38,385 bases of DNA from a virus (Duplodnaviria > Caudoviricetes): positions 1-38,385 of IMG/VR virus record IMGVR_UViG_3300025018_000059. One strand, 5' to 3'. The notes below the pieces were generated by a model, which saw only the letters and a list, made by a program, of their open reading frames with translations, searched no databases and was not told where the DNA came from. The translations under genes were made by a program, and so were the position numbers. Positions within the stretch are counted from its first letter, which is position 1; each line of letters starts with the position of its first letter. Shown here piece after piece: positions 205 to 37,126 of the stretch.

Positions 205-477
205 ATGATATGGCAAACAGTTAAAGAGTGGGAAAAAATTAATCAAAAAGATTATCCTGAATGGGCTTGTGTGTGGCATTATGATGCTTACGGAGAATGT
301 TGGGAATCCATTTATTGGTGTGAAATAAAAGATTATTATGAGCAGGAGAGAAAACAAAAAAAGGGTAATGCATTATGGGATTATCCATCTGAACCTATGG
401 TATGCGATCCTACTTTATCAGCCCCTAAATGGGGCGATGGTATGTCTTTAAAGAGAAAGGAGGAATTAGATGGATAA
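205..477 (+). CDS. hypothetical phage protein
   Basis: 90-aa ORF with GGAGG RBS, tightly coupled to neighbours. Confidence 0.75.
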   Translation: MIWQTVKEWEKINQKDYPEWACVWHYDAYGECWESIYWCEIKDYYEQERKQKKGNALWDYPSEPMVCDPTLSAPKWGDGMSLKRKEELDG

Positions 478-637
478 AAAATACTGTAAATGGACAGAGA
501 AATCTAATATAGATACACGTATTAGAAGATTTCAAACAGGCTGTAAATATACACATCATTTCATAGGGATGCTGCATAATGTAATATGCCCTTATTGTAG
601 CAAAGAAATAAAATTAATTAAGGGAGAAATGAGATGA
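470..637 (+). CDS. small putative Zn-ribbon protein (55 aa, not in ORF track)
   Basis: AGGAGG RBS; MDKKYCKW...QTGCK...ICPYCSKEIK; ATGA overlap with the next gene. Confidence 0.7.
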   Translation: MDKKYCKWTEKSNIDTRIRRFQTGCKYTHHFIGMLHNVICPYCSKEIKLIKGEMR

Positions 638-1255: not shown

Positions 1256-1284
1256 TTGACAGGTAAAGGAATATATGATACAAT
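1256..1284 (+). promoter_or_regulatory. sigma70-type promoter driving leader RNA copy A
   Basis: TTGACA-17 nt-TACAAT with extended -10 TG. Confidence 0.8.
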
Positions 1285-1290
1285 AAGTGA

Positions 1291-1393
1291 ACATGTGCAG
1301 CCTGATCACTGCATTGTGTAGAAAAATGACCTGTTTTAGTTTACTCCTGATCAGCACCTAGACGGTGGGGGTAAATGATGACAGGTCTTTTTA
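1291..1393 (+). ncRNA. structured leader RNA, copy A (loop-pairing attenuator-like motif)
   Basis: Hairpin TGCAG-CCTGATCA-CTGCA; long hairpin GACCTGT...ACAGGTC+TTTTT containing TGATCAG (1348-1354) and sub-hairpin CACC/GGTG; same architecture at three other loci. Confidence 0.8.
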
Positions 1394-1417
1394 TTGCAGT
1401 AATGCGAGGGGAAAATA

Positions 1418-1700: not shown

Positions 1701-1834
1701 GTCCGGGTGGCTGAATAGGTAAAGCATAGCTGGCGCGACACGGGATATAAATGCTTGATGGATGTGTTCAAGTATCCGCCCCCACAGTTATGATTTCACA
1801 AATCAATGCAGGGCGCAAATCCCTGCCCCGGACA
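1701..1834 (+). ncRNA. tRNA-like RNA with a long structured insert in place of the anticodon arm
   Basis: Acceptor GTCCGGG/CCCGGAC+A; D-arm-like TGGCTGAATAGGTAAAGC; T-arm-like GCAGGG-CGCAAAT-CCCTGC; no canonical anticodon loop. Confidence 0.7.
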
Positions 1835-4550: not shown

Positions 4551-4590
4551 GCAGAGAGTCAGGGAATAAAATCCCTGGCTTTTCTGTTTA
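4551..4590 (+). terminator. intrinsic terminator ending the accessory operon
   Basis: AGAGAGTCAGGGA-ATAAAA-TCCCTGGCTTTTCT hairpin with T tract. Confidence 0.65.
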
Positions 4591-4621: not shown

Positions 4622-4650
4622 TTGACAAAACTGTGTAAATAGTATACACT
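4622..4650 (+). promoter_or_regulatory. promoter upstream of the packaging/structural operon
   Basis: A-rich UP element then TTGACA-17 nt-TACACT. Confidence 0.6.
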
Positions 4651-4771
4651 ACCTTATGAATGTGTATAAGAAATATACAAGCGGAAGGCAGGGAACAGAT
4701 GCACGGAAACTTGAGGAAGTAAGCCAGAGTACTATCATAGCGCTCTGGCTTATTGCATTTAGGGGGATAGT

Positions 4772-5242
4772 GTGAGTAAGACAGTAGACAGTGAACACAG
4801 GACAAAGCATTATAAGGACATGATAGAACCTAAACTTAAAGATATTGAAAAATGGTGTGATGAAGGTGCTATAGATGTGGAAATAGCAAAGAGGTTAGGA
4901 ATATCGGTAAAAACACTTTATGAGTATAAAAAATATAGTGAGTTTTTACAGGCGATAAAAAAGGGAAAAGAAAACGCAGATTACAAAGTTGAGAACTCAC
5001 TATATAAAAGAGCAATGGGTTATAGGGTACTAGAGAAAACTATAATCAGAAATGCAGATGGTGAGATAATCAAAGAACAAATACAAGAAAAGCACATCGC
5101 ACCTGACACCACAGCACAGATATTCTGGCTTAAAAACAGAATGAGAGAGAATTGGAATGATAAACAACAAATAGACCTGAACGTAATAAACGTAAACATA
5201 CCAGGGATTACAGACAAAGAGCCTGACAATCCCGATAACTAG
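4772..5242 (+). CDS. terS: terminase small subunit (HTH-type)
   Basis: EIAKRLGISVKTLYEYK HTH; VENSLYKRAMG and PDTTAQIFWLKNR motifs; directly upstream of the large subunit; GTG start. Confidence 0.85.
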   Translation: MSKTVDSEHRTKHYKDMIEPKLKDIEKWCDEGAIDVEIAKRLGISVKTLYEYKKYSEFLQAIKKGKENADYKVENSLYKRAMGYRVLEKTIIRNADGEIIKEQIQEKHIAPDTTAQIFWLKNRMRENWNDKQQIDLNVINVNIPGITDKEPDNPDN

Positions 5243-5253
5243 GTAATAGGACA

Positions 5254-6510
5254 ATGGGTACAATCACAGTTAATTTTCCTGAGTTGACCACAATCATGAA
5301 TGACTGTTATATCCCGCTCATAGACTCTAAAGATGAAAACCTTATCTTCTATGGCGGTTATGGATCTGGCAAGTCGTACTTCATTGCTCAAAGATGGGTG
5401 ATGAATTATCTCCGTTTCCCTGGTCGTAATCTATTAGCAGTAAGAAAAGCTGCTACACATGCAAGGCGGTCAATCTACAATCTATTCAAGCAAATCATAT
5501 CAGAATGGGATTTATACAGACACTTTGATTTTCGTGAGCAAGAGATGACAGTCATATTTCCCAATGGGAACAGGATAGTAGTAGCAGGAGTCGACGACCC
5601 TGAGAACTTGAAATCTATCACACTTCCTAGCGGCGACTTCACGGACGGCTGGGCTGAAGAGGTCACAGAGTTAACATTTGACGAATACACAAAGTTTTCT
5701 CTCAGGGTAAGAGGTAAGAACACGCCTGGCGTTTGGTATCAAAAGATAATGAGCTTTAACCCTATATCAATTAGCCACTGGATTAAAAGAGAGTTTTTCG
5801 ACAATCCCTCTGAGCATGTCGCAGGTAACACAATAGCTATTCATACAACTTATCAAGATAACAAATTTTTGAATGATGATTATAGACGGACTCTTGAGGA
5901 CTTAAAGAACACTAATCCTGATTTATACATGATCGCTTGTATCGGAGAGTGGGGTACAACTGGTAAACAAATATATGAGAATGTAGATTTTGTTGACTCA
6001 ATACCAGAAGGACCTAAAAAAGTATACTACGGTATAGATTGGGGATATTCAATCGACCCTGCCTGTATTGTGCGGGTTACTGAGATGGGAGACGATTTCT
6101 ATTTAGAGTGTATGATATACGAGGAAGGACTTACCAACGATGATTTAGTCAAAATGGGGCTTGCTCTTGGCATTGACCCTTATGCTGAAATATACGCAGA
6201 CTCAGCAGAACCGAAAAGCATAGAGGAAGCTGCAAGAGCTGGATTTAAGGGAATCAGGGAATGTAGAAAAGGACCTGGAAGCGTAAAGACTGGGATTGAC
6301 CTATTGAAGAGTTTGAGATTGCACATTGTAAAAGTATTTGAATGGCAATCTGCAAAAAGAGAAAAAGAGATGTATCAATGGAAAAAGGATAGAAACGGGG
6401 AATATATGCCGGTACCGATTGACATGTTTAATCACTTCTGGGATGGCGCTAGGTACCCGATATTCACACGGAGACAGGGAACAGGCAGTTTAAAGATGCT
6501 GAAATTTTAA
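5254..6510 (+). CDS. terL: terminase large subunit, PBSX family
   Basis: Walker A GGYGSGKS, Walker B WAEE, SFNP motif, nuclease GIDWGYSIDP, ADSAEPKSI, NHFWDGARY. Confidence 0.95.
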   Translation: MGTITVNFPELTTIMNDCYIPLIDSKDENLIFYGGYGSGKSYFIAQRWVMNYLRFPGRNLLAVRKAATHARRSIYNLFKQIISEWDLYRHFDFREQEMTVIFPNGNRIVVAGVDDPENLKSITLPSGDFTDGWAEEVTELTFDEYTKFSLRVRGKNTPGVWYQKIMSFNPISISHWIKREFFDNPSEHVAGNTIAIHTTYQDNKFLNDDYRRTLEDLKNTNPDLYMIACIGEWGTTGKQIYENVDFVDSIPEGPKKVYYGIDWGYSIDPACIVRVTEMGDDFYLECMIYEEGLTNDDLVKMGLALGIDPYAEIYADSAEPKSIEEAARAGFKGIRECRKGPGSVKTGIDLLKSLRLHIVKVFEWQSAKREKEMYQWKKDRNGEYMPVPIDMFNHFWDGARYPIFTRRQGTGSLKMLKF

Positions 6511-9610: not shown

Positions 9611-10303
9611 ATGGCTATTACAATCGATGAAGTGAAAAGTTTTCTAACTGAAAATGCAACGGATGAAACTGTTAAAGGGTTTGTGTCTGAATTATCAAAG
9701 CCTAGTTTTGAGAGTGTTAGTGCATTTATTGAAACCGAAGAGGGTAAGAAATTAATGCAACCGATGTTTGATAGACGGGTAACTCAGGGCATAGACAGCT
9801 ATAAACAGAATCATGGTGCAAAGACTCAGACTGAAATCAATGAAATGCTGAAAGCAAAAGAGGAAGAGGTACGTAACAAGTATGCGCCAAAAGAAACACC
9901 GGAACAGATCAAGATTAGAGAACTTGAGGAAAGGCTGAATAACTCAGAATTTCAAAAGACTCAAGCTGAATTAAAAAATAATCTGGTATCGGCACTTACT
10001 GACAACGGACTCTCTAAAGAATTAGCCGGCTATGTATCGGTACAAAATGTCGATGAAATCCCCGCTAAAATATCAGAGCTAAAAAGCATCATTGATAATC
10101 AAGTGAAGCTTGGAATAGAAAGCAAGTTGAGCGGGTCGAGAGTAAAGCCTGGTAATAGTAACATCCCTGCTAATAAGGGAAGTATTGAAACTCTTGAAGC
10201 TGAATATAAACAGTTGGCAAGTAAGAAAGGTGATCCTTTCGCAGGAGCTAGAATGATAGCATTGCAAAGGGACATACAGGAACTAAAACAAAAAGGAGAA
10301 TAA
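9611..10303 (+). CDS. capsid scaffolding protein (DUF4355-like)
   Basis: FDRRVTQGI and PKETPEQ.KIRELEE coiled coil; precedes the capsid gene; AGGAG RBS supports a start at 9611 rather than 9536. Confidence 0.85.
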   Translation: MAITIDEVKSFLTENATDETVKGFVSELSKPSFESVSAFIETEEGKKLMQPMFDRRVTQGIDSYKQNHGAKTQTEINEMLKAKEEEVRNKYAPKETPEQIKIRELEERLNNSEFQKTQAELKNNLVSALTDNGLSKELAGYVSVQNVDEIPAKISELKSIIDNQVKLGIESKLSGSRVKPGNSNIPANKGSIETLEAEYKQLASKKGDPFAGARMIALQRDIQELKQKGE

Positions 10304-10304
10304 T

Positions 10305-11243
10305 ATGGCACAAGTATCTGGACAGGGGACAATTTGGAATCTACCTAATTATAGCGGAATGCTTTATACAGCGGATGCAATACGTACACCGTTTTTCAGT
10401 AACATGGGAATGCCTACACGTAAGACTGGAAACTTTGAATTTCCCACCGCATCGTTATATGACCACAGCGCAGCAGCACAGCCTGCTATTACTGAGACCG
10501 CATCGTTGACAGCACCCACAGCTACAGAGGCAATCAGAACTCAGGAAAAGAATGTTACTGAAATACACCAGAAAGCCGTAAAACTTTCTTACGTTAAGCA
10601 GTCTAACTCTGCAAGACTTTCTGGAATCAATACGGCTGGCGCAACTAATAACGCTGTGTCTGAGATGGACTTTCAGAGATTTGTTAAAATACAGGAAATG
10701 GCACGGGACATTGAATACAGCTTTTTAAATGGAGCTTATCAGATATCAACTTCCGCAGCCGTAGCTAATAAGACCCGTGGTATGTTTGAACTTTGCGCAA
10801 GTACCACCACTGTGAATGCAGCCGGAGCCGCTATTAGTAAAGTGTTGATAAATTCCTTACTTAAATCAATGGCAGATGCGGGCGCTTATTTTAATGACAT
10901 GTTCATGTTTGTAAATAGCTTTAACAAACAGGGAATAACTGACATTTATGAATATGTACCTACTGATAGAAATATCGGCGGAGCTAATATTCAGATGATA
11001 GAAACAGACTTTGGGCCCATCAGTGTTGTTTACAACCGTTTTGTACCAGCCGCTTCATTAGGTATCTTTGATATGAGTGCAGTCGGTGCAGTAGAGCAGG
11101 ATGTAAACGGAAAAGGTAACTTCTTTGAAGAGCCTTTAACTAAAAGTGGAGCATCCGATGACGTTATGATCTTTGGGCAGATTGGATTAGATCATGGCCC
11201 TGGATTTATGCACGGTAGTATCACATCTTTAGCAACATCATAA
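10305..11243 (+). CDS. major capsid protein (DUF5309/SU10-like)
   Basis: WNLPNYSG.L, NVTEIHQ, RDIEYSFLNG, ETDFG, GQIGLDHGP...HG motifs; size and position. Confidence 0.9.
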   Translation: MAQVSGQGTIWNLPNYSGMLYTADAIRTPFFSNMGMPTRKTGNFEFPTASLYDHSAAAQPAITETASLTAPTATEAIRTQEKNVTEIHQKAVKLSYVKQSNSARLSGINTAGATNNAVSEMDFQRFVKIQEMARDIEYSFLNGAYQISTSAAVANKTRGMFELCASTTTVNAAGAAISKVLINSLLKSMADAGAYFNDMFMFVNSFNKQGITDIYEYVPTDRNIGGANIQMIETDFGPISVVYNRFVPAASLGIFDMSAVGAVEQDVNGKGNFFEEPLTKSGASDDVMIFGQIGLDHGPGFMHGSITSLATS

Positions 11244-12820: not shown

Positions 12821-13074
12821 GTGTAAACAGACAGACTGAAATATCAGAATTAGAAATAGGTAATGTAGAAAAAGACATTATACAAGACACTAATGCTCAT
12901 GCCGGAACATGGCGCAAAATATATATAATCACTAATACAGTGTTTACTACTTTGACAGACTCAAAACTGAAAACAGGAGCTTACACAGTAGTGACCTTTG
13001 CAGCCGGACAAATATTATACGGTGATTTTTCTGTTATTCAATTAGCATCAGGTGCGGTAATCGCTTACAGATAG
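12817..13074 (+). CDS. hypothetical structural protein
   Basis: 85 aa; N-terminus MSVNRQTEI shared with 13642..14205. Confidence 0.7.
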   Translation: MSVNRQTEISELEIGNVEKDIIQDTNAHAGTWRKIYIITNTVFTTLTDSKLKTGAYTVVTFAAGQILYGDFSVIQLASGAVIAYR

Positions 13075-13084
13075 GAGGTGATAA

Positions 13085-13633
13085 ATGCATAAAGAAGCGC
13101 AAGTTTTAGAGCAATATCATTATGGCAATACCGGAGGCTTAGTTATTTTGACAGCAGACCAACATGATATACATCAGGGTAGGATGTTTAGAGCAACTAT
13201 TGTCACAGGTGAAATAGCAGCAGGTGATGAGATAAATATTAGCCTTAAAACACCGGATAGCGGACATGTGCATTTAAGACCCGTTTCAATATCATCGACC
13301 GAAAACATATTAGAATTATCACTCATTGAATCTGACGGTGTACCTGGAGGCGGCAATGCTGTCCCAGTTTATAACATGAATAGACATATTACAGACTTGG
13401 GGAAATTAGAAATTAAATTTAATGTTACTCATTTAGGTGGTGTTTATTTAGAGCAGATTATATCAGGCACAAATGGCGGGCAAACTACACGAAACGGCGG
13501 AGAGTCTAACAACAGATATAATGAGTACATATTGAAAGAAAATAATTACTATATCTTGAAAGTGAAAAATATAGGCACAATAGCCGGCACAACCGGATAT
13601 ATAAATATGCAGTGGGTTGAATATGAAATTTAG
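13085..13633 (+). CDS. hypothetical structural protein, paralog of 13642..14205
   Basis: H..IHQG..F, TP, H.RP..IS, V...N.NR, GG....E..L.....Y shared. Confidence 0.75.
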   Translation: MHKEAQVLEQYHYGNTGGLVILTADQHDIHQGRMFRATIVTGEIAAGDEINISLKTPDSGHVHLRPVSISSTENILELSLIESDGVPGGGNAVPVYNMNRHITDLGKLEIKFNVTHLGGVYLEQIISGTNGGQTTRNGGESNNRYNEYILKENNYYILKVKNIGTIAGTTGYINMQWVEYEI

Positions 13634-25901: not shown

Positions 25902-25916
25902 ACTATACTCTCCTGA

Positions 25917-26018
25917 TAAAAAAAAGAGTACACTTTTACAACCCATCCCGAAGGATTCACCCGGATTATAATCATGTACTCTTTTTACAACATTGATAAG
26001 GGGTGAACTAATCATGTC
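25917..26018 (-). ncRNA. structured leader RNA, copy B
   Basis: Hairpin loop TTCACCC; long hairpin AAAAAGAGTACA...TGTACTCTTTTT containing GGGTGAA and sub-hairpin TCC-TTCG-GGA. Confidence 0.8.
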
Positions 26019-26023
26019 AAATA

Positions 26024-26052
26024 ATTATACCACGGCACAGGTAAAAAGTCAA
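26024..26052 (-). promoter_or_regulatory. leftward sigma70-type promoter
   Basis: TTGACT-17 nt-TATAAT with extended -10 TG. Confidence 0.8.
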
Positions 26053-26308: not shown

Positions 26309-26539
26309 ATGAATTACTATTTGAACAATGATGAAAGGTTAGGTGGAAAATGGTTAATATCTGAAACAAATAAATCTATGCAAATTAACCCCGATGAACC
26401 CATTACAGTAGCAGAAGCATTTGAATCTGGAGAATACAAAATTGAAAAATTTAGCTCTGTTATTGGATTAATGCGCTATATTCTGAGTGAAGAGCGTGAC
26501 CCAAAAAAAACATGGAATATATTAAAACAAGAATTATAA
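26309..26539 (+). CDS. hypothetical early protein
   Basis: 76 aa, GGAGG RBS. Confidence 0.75.
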   Translation: MNYYLNNDERLGGKWLISETNKSMQINPDEPITVAEAFESGEYKIEKFSSVIGLMRYILSEERDPKKTWNILKQEL

Positions 26540-26595
26540 CCGAAACGGGGGAAACCCCGTCCGCCGGATACCCGCCCGGCGCTGATGAGGTAGGG
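26539..26595 (+). ncRNA. hammerhead ribozyme, type II topology
   Basis: ACC-GAAA-[CGGGG GAAA CCCCG]-TC-[CGCCGG ATACCCGC CCGGCG]-CTGATGA-GGT; full catalytic core and GUC cleavage triplet (26559-26561). Confidence 0.9.
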
Positions 26596-26948
26596 AAATA
26601 ACAGGAGGCAAGTATGAAAAGAGCATTGAAACAGGCAGAAAGTAAAGTAGTAGGATTACATGCAGGTATTACAGGAGATGTTTCTGACCTGTGGGGAAAA
26701 ATATCTTCTGACCTGTGTGGAAATGTTTCTGACCTGTGTGGAAAAATATCTTCTGGAATGAGTGGAAATGTTACTGGACTGCGGGGAGATGTTACTGGAC
26801 TGCGTGGAAAAATTTCTTCTGGACTGAGTGGAGATGTTTCTGGACTGAGTGGAGATGTAGATGAGTGTGAAATCACAGATGATGAGAGAGTGAACGGCAT
26901 AGATATTTCTGAGTTGATTATACTACCCACTGATGAGGTAGGGAAATA
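26582..26948 (+). repeat. 19-bp direct repeat CTGATGAGGTAGGGAAATA at 26582-26600 and 26930-26948
   Basis: Exact match; both copies are followed by a GGAGGCA RBS. Confidence 0.9.
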
Positions 26949-26949
26949 G
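26614..26949 (+). CDS. short-repeat protein (GDVSGLx heptads, probable beta-solenoid)
   Basis: Tandem 21/24-nt units encoding GDVSDLW/GKISSDLC/GNVTGLR/GDVSGLS. Confidence 0.8.
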   Translation: MKRALKQAESKVVGLHAGITGDVSDLWGKISSDLCGNVSDLCGKISSGMSGNVTGLRGDVTGLRGKISSGLSGDVSGLSGDVDECEITDDERVNGIDISELIILPTDEVGK

Positions 26950-26959
26950 GAGGCAGAAA

Positions 26960-31966: not shown

Positions 31967-32196
31967 ACGATAATTACCCAGCCGGCGTAAGCGATAATCA
32001 CCCCTATTTCAATCCAGATAATATTAGAGAAAAAAAAGCTGATTTTATCATCGAAGAGTTAAGAATGAAACACGGCGATAATCTCGTCAAGGCCTGTACA
32101 GACTATACACAAATAGCCTTTGATGACTTGCGATATCCGCCGAAAACATGGGAAGACCTGTACAAAATAATACTTGATGATCAGGAGTACACATGA
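31963..32196 (+). CDS. hypothetical protein
   Basis: 77 aa; NYPAG...HPYFN. Confidence 0.7.
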   Translation: MNDNYPAGVSDNHPYFNPDNIREKKADFIIEELRMKHGDNLVKACTDYTQIAFDDLRYPPKTWEDLYKIILDDQEYT

Positions 32197-32483
32197 CAAA
32201 ATCAGAGACAAGTGAAAATTTTAAAACTTTAGAGAGACTTACTGGAATCAGAGTTTATACTTTTAACTCAAATCGTCGTATGCCCCCAGGCTCTATTGGA
32301 TGGATGGACCGTGTAATAATCACCCGTTCACACATTATCTGCATAGAGGACAAAATAGGACGGGACGTACTGAGCGATAAGCAAAAAGAGGTAGGGAAGT
32401 CACTAAAAGCACTTTCCCGTTTCCCTGGCAGCCGTGTTGTATATTATCTCAATTACAGAGTAGACGCTGTATTGTGTAGTTAA
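32193..32483 (+). CDS. VRR-NUC-like PD-(D/E)xK nuclease, C-terminus possibly truncated
   Basis: GWMD...IEDK...LSDKQK; 3' end runs into leader RNA copy C. Confidence 0.65.
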   Translation: MTKSETSENFKTLERLTGIRVYTFNSNRRMPPGSIGWMDRVIITRSHIICIEDKIGRDVLSDKQKEVGKSLKALSRFPGSRVVYYLNYRVDAVLCS

Positions 32484-32553
32484 AAGTCACTTTTTGAGAG
32501 CGCACGTCTACCCCTATTCATAGGGAAGTGCTCTTTGAGAAGTGGCTTTTTTT
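32450..32553 (+). ncRNA. structured leader RNA, copy C
   Basis: TACAG-AGTAGACG-CTGTA; long hairpin AAAAGTCACTTTT...GAGAAGTGGCTTTT containing CGTCTAC and sub-hairpin CCCTA-TTCA-TAGGG. Confidence 0.8.
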
Positions 32554-32573
32554 ATTCATAAAATGAGGTAAAA

Positions 32574-35390: not shown

Positions 35391-35419
35391 TTGACAATAC
35401 AGTGAAATTAATGTATAAT
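35391..35419 (+). promoter_or_regulatory. consensus sigma70 promoter driving leader RNA copy D
   Basis: TTGACA-17 nt-TATAAT. Confidence 0.85.
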
Positions 35420-35425
35420 AATTAA

Positions 35426-35527
35426 ACATGTGCAGAGTCGAAACTGCCCGATGTAGTAAAAGCCATTTCTTGAAAGGTTGTTTTTCGACCCTGATTAATC
35501 AGGAACCTTTTTGAGAGATGGCTTTTT
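35426..35527 (+). ncRNA. structured leader RNA, copy D
   Basis: GCAG-AGTCGAAA-CTGC; long hairpin AAAAGCCATTTCT...AGAGATGGCTTTT containing TTTCGAC and sub-hairpin CCTGAT/ATCAGG. Confidence 0.8.
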
Positions 35528-35553
35528 ATATTGCAGAAATGCGAGGGAAATTC

Positions 35554-36078
35554 ATGACAGTAAAAGAAATGAGTCAATTGTTTAATGTATCAGAAGAAAC
35601 AGTAAAGAGATCAATTAGGGATACGTACCCTGATAAAATGCAAAATGGGAAAAGAACTGTATTGACAAAAGATGAAGCTATTTTAATAGGTGAAAATATT
35701 AGAAAAAAGGGATACATACAACCTACACAAAACGTGCAGCTACCTACACAAAATGAGCAGGTAGACAGAATAGACCGTATAGAAAATATGCTTAATAAAC
35801 TTATCTCAGTAATAGCTACACAAGTGGAAACAACTAATAAACTCTTAGAATCAACAAATCAAAAACAACTGGAAATAATTCAAGATTATTACACTATCAA
35901 AGGTTATGCATCAAAGCTCAAAGTACAGTTAGTTTATTCAGAGGCTTTAAAGCTTGGCAGGGAAGCGGCTAAAATGTCCAGAGAGAAAGGAATTGAAATA
36001 CAGAAAATTCCCGATGCTAATTATGATTTTGTGAATAGCTACCATGTTTCAGTGCTTGAAGAAATATTTAGAATATAG
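35554..36078 (+). CDS. antirepressor-like DNA-binding protein
   Basis: N-terminal HTH MTVKEMSQLFNVSEETVKR; C-terminal YYTIKGYA...LGREA.K.SR..G...IPD..Y..VNSYH domain seen on phage antirepressor-type proteins; GAGG RBS supports a start at 35554. Confidence 0.7.
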   Translation: MTVKEMSQLFNVSEETVKRSIRDTYPDKMQNGKRTVLTKDEAILIGENIRKKGYIQPTQNVQLPTQNEQVDRIDRIENMLNKLISVIATQVETTNKLLESTNQKQLEIIQDYYTIKGYASKLKVQLVYSEALKLGREAAKMSREKGIEIQKIPDANYDFVNSYHVSVLEEIFRI

Positions 36079-36089
36079 GACGGTAAACA

Positions 36090-36260
36090 ATGACAACAGA
36101 AATATTCACAAAAGATGTATTAAAAGAGATTGAAAATGAAAATCCTAACATATTTATAAATTTTGATTTACAGTTTAGTAAATATAATATTATTGGACAT
36201 GAATAAATATTCAGTGTTGACAAATTAAAAAAGATTATTGAAATAATGGAAGGTGAATAA
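36090..36260 (+). pseudogene. small ORF with one in-frame TAA (36204-36206)
   Basis: MTTEIFTK...IIGHE*IFSVDKLKKIIEIMEGE*; the second stop couples to the next ATG. Confidence 0.35.
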
Positions 36261-37126
36261 TGGCGCAAAGAAGAATGTTCTCAATGCACATTATAGACAG
36301 TGATGCATTTCTTGATATGCCACAATCTACTCAAAATTTATATTTTCACATGTCAATGCGGGCTGATGATGATGGATTTGTATCAAACCCTAAAAAGATA
36401 ATGAAAATATTAGGATCCTCAGACGATGATTTAAAACTTCTTATCGGTAAGCGGTTTATTATTGGATTTGAAAGCGGTATAGTGGTTATTAAACATTGGA
36501 AAATACACAACTATATTGCAAAAGATAGGTACAATAAAACTAGATATGAAGAAGAATTAAATCAATTACAAATTAAAGATAATGGCTCGTATACAGAATG
36601 TATACAAAGTGTTGACACAGGTAAGGTAAGGTTAGTCAAGGTAAGTCAAGTTAAGGAAAGTAAAGAATGTATATCTGATAAATCAGATAAAGACATACAC
36701 CTTGAAACTTCTTTTAATAAATTATGGGATATTGAACAAAACAAGGAATCAAAAGCCAGAGCATTAAAGAACTACAAGAAAGCATTAAAACTTATACCTC
36801 ATGACACTATCCTAAACCGATGGCAATTGTATTATGATAACGCCCTCATAAAATACAGCGATAAGAAATATATAACCCGCCTTGCTAACTGGTTAGGAGA
36901 GAAAGCTGGATACTTAGACGACCCTGAGACTATCAAACAATACACACTATCAGAGATCATGAAAGAGAGAGAAAATTATAGGATAATCAAGGGCCACATT
37001 GCACCGGATAACTGGGCACCTCCTGCCGGCTGGGATGACTATGTCAATGATAATCAATCTGTAATAGATCAGTACTGGAAAGTATACAATGATAATCAAG
37101 AGAGAATGAGAAGGGAGGGAATATGA
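36260..37126 (+). CDS. phage replisome organizer / replication initiator
   Basis: MAQRRMFS..IIDSDAFLDMPQSTQNLYFH.SMRADDDGFV, VIKHWKIHNYI.KDRY. Confidence 0.92.
   Translation: MAQRRMFSMHIIDSDAFLDMPQSTQNLYFHMSMRADDDGFVSNPKKIMKILGSSDDDLKLLIGKRFIIGFESGIVVIKHWKIHNYIAKDRYNKTRYEEELNQLQIKDNGSYTECIQSVDTGKVRLVKVSQVKESKECISDKSDKDIHLETSFNKLWDIEQNKESKARALKNYKKALKLIPHDTILNRWQLYYDNALIKYSDKKYITRLANWLGEKAGYLDDPETIKQYTLSEIMKERENYRIIKGHIAPDNWAPPAGWDDYVNDNQSVIDQYWKVYNDNQERMRREGI

Follow-up and report, generated by a model that had tools for sequence, protein, structure and literature searches.

A predicted loop-to-junction pseudoknot in a phage leader RNA that probably attenuates transcription in cis

Leader D precedes an antirepressor-like gene of a phage and holds a 7-letter word in a hairpin loop together with the exact complement of this word further downstream. 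Three other leaders in the same genome (copies A, B, and C) show the same arrangement, each with a word of its own. This raises the question whether the word is an address, by which each RNA recognizes partners of its own kind, or whether it is the pairing as such that matters. The first-pass annotation inclined to the former: it described D as a close relative of A with a fully switched word, and took conserved flanks around a diversified pairing word to suggest selection for specificity, as in immunity or incompatibility groups.

The window, i.e., the whole stretch of DNA that was analysed, is a complete phage record of 38,385 bases with direct terminal repeats. Its sequence was found in one aquifer metagenome run, a DNA run that may be the source of the window and shows no variants; no RNA run with this sequence was listed. 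Its genes specify terminase, portal, capsid, and tail proteins, an Erf-like annealer and methyltransferases, as well as a Rha protein and a DnaD-like replisome organiser. None of the 72 ORFs scanned matched an integrase or repressor family in PHROGs, many of them being without any family. Searches bearing on the host returned only distant phages, and among cultured phages D produced nothing beyond short chance matches in blastn. D was said to precede both an antirepressor-like gene and the replication initiator. The former does come next, with an N-terminal HTH and a C-terminal part common to KilA-N/Bro-N proteins (antirepressor-like), although it falls in no curated family, while the initiator lies two ORFs further on (Table 1). 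Several other features of the window may be recorded here. A Type II hammerhead ribozyme (26538-26599, plus strand), above the Rfam gathering score, is located between two early ORFs, and the letters of its 3′ end recur at approximately 26930-26950, after a repeat-rich ORF (26614-26949). A tRNA-shaped sequence (1701-1834, plus strand; fold z -1.25) has a 7-bp closing stem, a T-arm-like hairpin, and a long insert, and was called by neither ARAGORN nor Rfam. An apparently truncated 52-aa single-strand-binding-protein-like ORF occupies 2211-2369, an ordinary strong terminator 4551-4587 (z -5.2), and a promoter with a two-hairpin leader 4622-4775, before the terminase operon; the hairpin at 4655-4775 was considered as copy B and dropped, as it has no knot.

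Table 1. Features of leader D, of its counterparts in the window, and (last three rows) of related leaders elsewhere.
Feature	Position	Strand	Remarks
D leader	35426-35530	+	~105 bases
D promoter	35391..35419	+	sigma-70-type TTGACA-17-TATAAT, 12/12 match
D transcription start (predicted)	35426	+	same 6-nt spacing from -10 to ACATG in A, B, and D
P1 hairpin (pseudoknot stem S1)	35426-35435 with 35444-35454	+	predicted fold
P1 loop, 8 nt	35436-35443	+	first nt free, remaining 7 paired
Loop word GTCGAAA (5′ strand of knot helix S2)	35437..35443	+	
A-tract and 5′ arm of long stem P2	35458..35479	+	predicted fold
Junction word TTTCGAC (3′ strand of S2)	35483..35489	+	unpaired in MFE fold
Inner hairpin P3	35490..35503	+	begins 0 nt past junction word
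P2 3′ arm and U-tract	35504..35530	+	predicted long-stem, intrinsic-terminator-like end
U-tract TTTTTATA	35523-35530	+	
GNRA-loop hairpin	35531-35544	+	small, also in A; weak alone (z -1.1)
Shine-Dalgarno-like GAGGG	35543-35547	+	overlapped by the small GNRA-loop hairpin
Gene directly after D	35554..36078	+	174-aa, N-terminal HTH
DnaD-like replisome organiser (replication initiator)	36260..37126	+	phrog_8489, E 1e-63
Copy A	1256..1395	+	promoter 11/12; precedes 73-aa ORF at 1418
Copy A word CTGATCA	1302-1308	+	partner 1348-1354
Copy B	25914..26052	-	promoter 11/12; precedes Rha-family gene
Copy B word TTCACCC	26007-26001	-	partner 25962-25956; P3 with UUCG loop
Copy C	32449..32554	+	no consensus promoter; precedes SNF2-helicase/methyltransferase gene
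Copy C word GTAGACG	32460-32466	+	partner 32505-32511
L285 (G007), two-word leaders	9849-10001, 10611-10765, 13003-13160		two have one word in common but not the second
L042 leader	5486-5630		9-nt 5′ word repeated over ribosome-binding site past stem; c4/CI-like arrangement
L264 leader	400-560		two-word, upstream of replication initiator; short contig in Moraniibacteriota MAG

In its MFE fold leader D consists of P1, a 3-nt linker, and a 22-bp P2 that encloses a 10-nt junction and P3 and runs into the U-tract, with P1 and P2 standing side by side. None of 200 shuffles equals its folding energy (-35.4 kcal/mol, z -5.8). The loop word and the junction word are exact complements, and both are unpaired in this fold. 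A standard terminator scan reports only P3 for D. The ATG of the following gene lies 31 nt past the U-tract start and no promoter-like site was found between the U-tract and this ATG, so that the gene would depend on read-through. A role as a DNA hairpin was considered and is disfavoured by the G-U pairs, the UUCG and GNRA loops, and the better fold of the plus strand, although the minus strand folds as well (z -5.05).

The four copies share a geometry rather than letters: their stems are unrelated and almost no letters are invariant. Word and partner are spaced by 46 nt in A and D and by 45 nt in B and C. All seven knot pairs are Watson-Crick in A-D, whereas P2 of these copies includes 3-5 G-U pairs; P2 has 22 pairs in A-D and 19 in L047 (a leader of another phage). 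In these five leaders P3 starts 0 nt after the partner word, and 30-35 nt separate the partner word from the U-tract. L2 is 0 in all copies and L1 is 1 (0 in the fold of B), the values of 1 and 0 being the canonical arrangement of an H-type pseudoknot. Each of A-D is positioned 20-31 nt before a start codon on the same strand. P1 of copy C falls inside the last codons of an ORF (32193-32483) that ends in the linker of C, so that translation of this ORF would run through P1. Copy B was found by eye and was missed by the descriptor scripts. The descriptor, i.e., a hairpin loop word, a complementary word, an inner hairpin, and a flanking duplex, found only A, C, and D in the window at <= -25 kcal/mol; on both strands of 60 dinucleotide shuffles it gave one match at this threshold and none with a 7-nt word. 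When C and D are compared, 75 of the 76 cells are paired and seven pairs have changed on both sides (three in the knot, two in P3, and one each in P1 and P2), figures that describe two sequences only. Further occurrences of the words in the genome, 1-3 each, are at chance level. In a longer fold of A a 3′ TGCAG pairs with P1, a pairing that C does not retain, and a promoter-like site within the P2 arm of C is absent from D; both were dropped as common elements. The word of A contains a 6-nt palindrome, which those of B, C, and D do not, and A loops could therefore kiss each other. The predicted transcripts of A, B, and D (starting at 1291, 26017 on the minus strand, and 35426) all begin with ACAUG, in each case exactly 7 nt past the -10 box, the AUG of B being in frame with the Rha gene.

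How close D is to A bears directly on the significance of the word. All motifs and coordinates quoted in the first-pass annotation are present, including GTCGAAA at 35437-35443 and TTTCGAC at 35483-35489. The only exact occurrences of CTATTGACA are at 1253 (A) and 35388 (D); it contains the -35 box and begins 3 nt ahead of the annotated start of the feature. A and D further have AACATGTGCAG, CTGC, TGTAG, and ATTGCAG.AATGCGAGGG in common, and our results support their homology, the covariation of loop and target, and the assignment as a regulatory leader. The word, however, is not fully switched: five of its seven pairs differ, positions 2 and 7 being the same as in A. The kinship of D and A also proved partial. 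It is evident in the promoter (28/41), the first ten transcribed nucleotides (10/10), and the 3′ tail (28/37), but identity drops to the level of shuffles in the P2 arms (11/21 and 9/20), in P3 (7/14), and in the word (2/7). In several parts D is in fact nearer to C, i.e., the P2 3′ arm (15/21), P3 (9/14), and the loop (5/8). Since the P2 arms and P3 are also at shuffle level, the word is not singled out; judged by the letters, the turnover between A and D extends to all paired parts beyond P1 and is not limited to the word.

The reading that we prefer is that D is a cis-acting transcription attenuator in which the predicted pseudoknot hinders timely closure of the terminator, which we consider probable, though by no means certain, in view of the fixed geometry, the paired changes between C and D, the surveys described below, and the guanidine-IV precedent. 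The sequence order is promoter match, P1 loop word, junction word, P3, 22-bp P2, U-tract, and gene. Judging from this order of synthesis, P1 would fold first and the 7-bp knot helix next, there being room for the helix to form 12-17 nt ahead of the P2 3′ arm and 30-35 nt ahead of the U-tract. The knot, on which P3 would stack, would adopt canonical H-type geometry and close the P2 5′ arm into a ring, taking no P2 bases. The 3′ arm, held by the polymerase, would then be unable to wind its full 1.5-1.7 turns until the knot opens; with P2 open, the polymerase would pass the U-tract and the gene would be transcribed, whereas a knot that forms late or is pulled open would let P2 close and release an RNA of approximately 100 nt. 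The fraction of read-through would thus be set kinetically, with the knot presumably as the ON direction. Polymerase speed, a factor, or released RNA are candidate inputs that could shift the balance; no switching signal was found. At equilibrium the energy of the outer stem (-13 to -18 kcal/mol) exceeds that of the knot helix (-6.7 to -9.7 kcal/mol) and, by a rough reach estimate (tether 72-99 Å versus stem 50-56 Å), knot and closed stem can coexist. Simple steric exclusion is therefore unsupported and the effect would have to be kinetic or topological. Ordinary terminator stems are 7-9 bp according to PMC10325885, and by that measure the long stems of the leaders are approximately twice as long. 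Since read-through by this mechanism would need pairing and spacing and not particular letters, words would be expected to drift with compensatory change.

Related leaders were sought in loci collected via the replisome organiser (80 viral, 80 metagenome, and 80 genome loci) and via the protein encoded downstream of D, to which the remainder of ten phage records was added; the survey is biased in that its filters were set after examples had been seen and its loci were gathered through two neighbouring proteins. The 2.62 Mb of window and related loci contain 139 distinct long U-tailed stems. All ten of those with a promoter-like and a ribosome site have an upstream word of at least 6 nt that matches the interior (swap mean 2.5, maximum 6 in 300), A and D being two of the ten. 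The other 129 include 43 with a word, which is near the swap level (39/139). A promoter-anchored survey led from 2,294 sites to 29 stems, of which 14 have a word of at least 6 nt (swap mean 5.8), 11 have one of at least 7 nt (swap mean 1.6, maximum 6), and 15 have none. The exact topology of D was seen in five elements from two genomes only, which speaks against the preferred reading: one word pairs into the junction in the window copies and in L047, which has the same layout and a fifth word. A 5′ word pairs into the inner loop in L042 and a second G001 copy, and two-word leaders were encountered twice at L043, once each at L048, L190, and L264, and three times at L285. Several related leaders directly precede replication initiators or homologs of the protein downstream of D. 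Among six loci with such homologs, a word-bearing long stem lies directly upstream in two (L285 and L286) and inspection revealed no such stem in the remaining four; in the L284 genome a word-bearing stem, read by eye, precedes a later gene instead.

The covariance model derived from C and D finds A with 32 bits (E 2e-4) and gives only weak matches to B, L042, L047, and L285 (E 0.03-0.95); in the search, which covered 105 of approximately 310 loci, no match at E <= 1 was found in 100 other loci. Exact-pattern scans of viral contigs returned 1, 0, and 39 loci, in none of which inspection revealed the architecture, and scans based on the Rha and terminase proteins gave no confirmed loci. Rfam scans of six relatives revealed no non-tRNA family, and for the L043 leader nothing at E <= 1.

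An addressed control in trans, with the logic of P4 CI and P1 c4, could be built on the cis mechanism. The released leader, or a processed piece of P2, junction, and P3, would show a free junction word that binds the P1 loop of newly made transcripts whose word is identical, so that no knot forms and termination follows; each operon would have its private negative feedback and related phages with the same word could be excluded. Precedents exist in P4 CI and IsrK (PMC4825925) and in P1/P7 ImmI (PMC6906374). The finding of different words within multi-copy genomes (four in the window, two each in G001 and G002, three in G007) is consistent with such addressing, as are the L042 (9 nt) and L043 (6-7 nt) repeats of the word, which cover the ribosome site or the start codon, although such repeats in 2 of 14 leaders are not significant against the swap control (P 0.13) and in none of A-D did the junction strand match its own translation start region more closely than shuffles did (p 0.11-0.79). 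Every copy has itself as the best partner (-7.8 to -12.1 kcal/mol, versus at most -4.8 kcal/mol for cross-pairing among the four words), but random four-word sets have a median strongest cross-pairing of -4.2 kcal/mol and the A-D words are no more orthogonal than these. Between C and D, a comparison of two sequences, both-side changes are more frequent in the knot (3/7) than in P2 (1/19), with 2/5 in P3, whereas in the comparison of A with D the divergence of the word does not exceed that of P2 and P3. The diversity of words across homologs points both ways: paralogs mostly differ in words, and one G007 pair has kept its stems (15/17 and 13/17 identical) better than its words, but two G007 paralogs share TTGACC and in the G002 pair the words have diverged about as much as the stems, so that at the level of sequence the paralogs in other genomes neither prove nor exclude addressing. 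The lack of an integrase or repressor match among the 72 ORFs scanned, many of them without a family, may also count against it, and a released RNA brings along the partner of its word, with which it could form a knot of its own. A scan for consensus promoters detected no antisense promoter above chance (6 sites versus 5.3 expected); the only two promoter-like sites on the minus strand (9/12) are 360 and 730 nt downstream. The proposed selection for word specificity thus received no support from our tests of divergence, orthogonality, and downstream targets. Trans action is not the best-supported reading and seems rather doubtful to us; that the knot topologically locks a two-turn terminator open, free of protein or ligand, and that the word is also the address for shutting off the own operon in trans, is in combination unlikely.

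Two further explanations were considered. The leader could be a stable, compact small RNA, e.g., a protein decoy, with a merely leaky terminator, where the knot protects a product of approximately 100 nt after P2 has closed and downstream genes receive a fixed leak. The estimated coexistence of knot and closed stem agrees with this, and the identity of the first 10 nt in A and D would fit a bound protein. It is nevertheless quite improbable, given that every copy precedes a same-strand start codon by 20-31 nt, as expected for a cis element, that hardly any letter is invariant across the four copies, whose stems are unrelated, and that copy C lacks a consensus promoter. Alternatively, a ribosome on a near-leaderless AUG at +3 (A, B, and D) or one ending the upstream gene (C) could melt P1 and the knot and thereby set termination. 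The common ACAUG start, a 28-codon frame from the 5′ AUG of D, and the location of P1 of C within an ORF end all speak for such coupling, but the ACAUG letters are explained by ACA/UGU pairing at the base of P1, the frames differ (that of A stops in P3 and that of D in P2, and that of B enters Rha), no ribosome site is present, and the 5′ AUG is absent from most related leaders. We regard translational coupling as very improbable.

With attenuation in cis as the preferred reading, it is likely, in terms of the model, that the predicted knot delays the stop signal and meters the transcription of early regulatory and replication genes. This would add a sequence-free form of termination control, in which a knot competes with a long terminator through folding order and not through shared bases. 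In several uncultured phages the wider class lies at the head of replication and antirepressor-like genes, and neither Rfam nor a standard terminator scan detects it. The four natural words make the guanidine-IV mechanism and the specificity questions of the CI/c4 type testable in one cross matrix. Should the word prove to be an address, one phage would run RNA feedback in four separate loops, a new orthogonal switch could be made from any 7-letter word, and a ready set of orthogonal RNA switches would be at hand.

Rfam 15 yielded no match for the leaders in the whole window, the sole match at gathering score being the hammerhead elsewhere; for the D region the best hit (E 0.1) was a microRNA hairpin with 21 bits versus a gathering score of 68. 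No paper describing the leader element was found in the literature covered, which excludes most subscription journals. From the sequence evidence, the leader feature is real, well constrained, and uncatalogued in Rfam. Countertranscript attenuators of the pT181/pIP501 type use an antisense RNA from an opposite-strand promoter; D differs in having no such promoter above chance in the scan for consensus sites. The CI RNA of P4, a processed and stable RNA that acts in trans, has a stalk-bulge-hairpin shape. According to PMC4825925, it pairs with seqA and seqC, which leads to termination. CI resembles our leaders as a phage leader with internal complementary words and premature termination before early or replication genes; D, however, has one word and the upstream site only, A-D lack a seqC-like downstream copy, the stem ends in an intrinsic-terminator-like U-tract, and four paralogs reside in one genome. 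In c4 a second target, a2/b2, is located downstream, near the start region. The c4 layout of P1/P7 (RF01695, c4-a1b1), as given in PMC2864571, comprises a junction of three stems and two antisense regions, a′ and b′, and small ImmI differences underlie P1/P7 heteroimmunity (PMC6906374). As in c4, the inner single strand of the long stem matches an upstream hairpin loop, and the two-word relatives L043, L048, L190, and L285 resemble the three-stem layout. The position of c4 before an antirepressor gene may be a further similarity: B precedes a Rha gene and D the HTH protein with a KilA-N/Bro-N-associated C-terminus, whereas A and C precede no such gene. D itself differs in having two stems (P2 and P3), one word, and no a2/b2 site, and the c4 covariance model matched neither D nor the L043 relative. 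A match to the motifs in the supplement of PMC5737381 (the c4-2 motif and 224 diagrams) is excluded only so far as Rfam 15 includes them.

IsrK of Gifsy-1, upstream of an antirepressor, targets its own read-through RNA in trans (PMC4825925). It resembles our leaders in its intrinsic terminator, past which transcription partly continues into the antirepressor operon, and occurs in short and long forms; IsrK, however, pairs at length with a downstream ORF and activates its translation, whereas the word of D pairs upstream and has no downstream match. The zipper-type attenuator cATT of pLS20 (PMC13401043) is likewise a long imperfect stem in the leader of a mobile element, and its terminator immediately precedes the first gene; there the antiterminator takes bases of the terminator 5′ stem through an upstream stem-loop complementary to it, which extends a long stem, whereas the long stem of D is itself terminator-like and its competitor is a 7-bp knot. 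Closest in mechanism is the guanidine-IV riboswitch (GGAM-1/mepA motif), where a kissing loop hinders full closure of the terminator without sharing stem bases (PMC7736828; PMC11611296), and a 5′ loop pairing into the interior of the terminator hairpin is proposed to give read-through. It differs from our leaders, in which the word and nearly all letters vary, invariant columns are few, and a conserved ligand site is lacking; in which the partner of D is in the junction beside the inner hairpin and not in a tip loop; and which are followed by phage regulatory and replication genes and not by exporters (sugE, mepA). Thus, by the features tested, the leader is no member of c4, CI, or guanidine-IV, and by analogy it would work most like a ligand-free knot attenuator of the guanidine-IV type.
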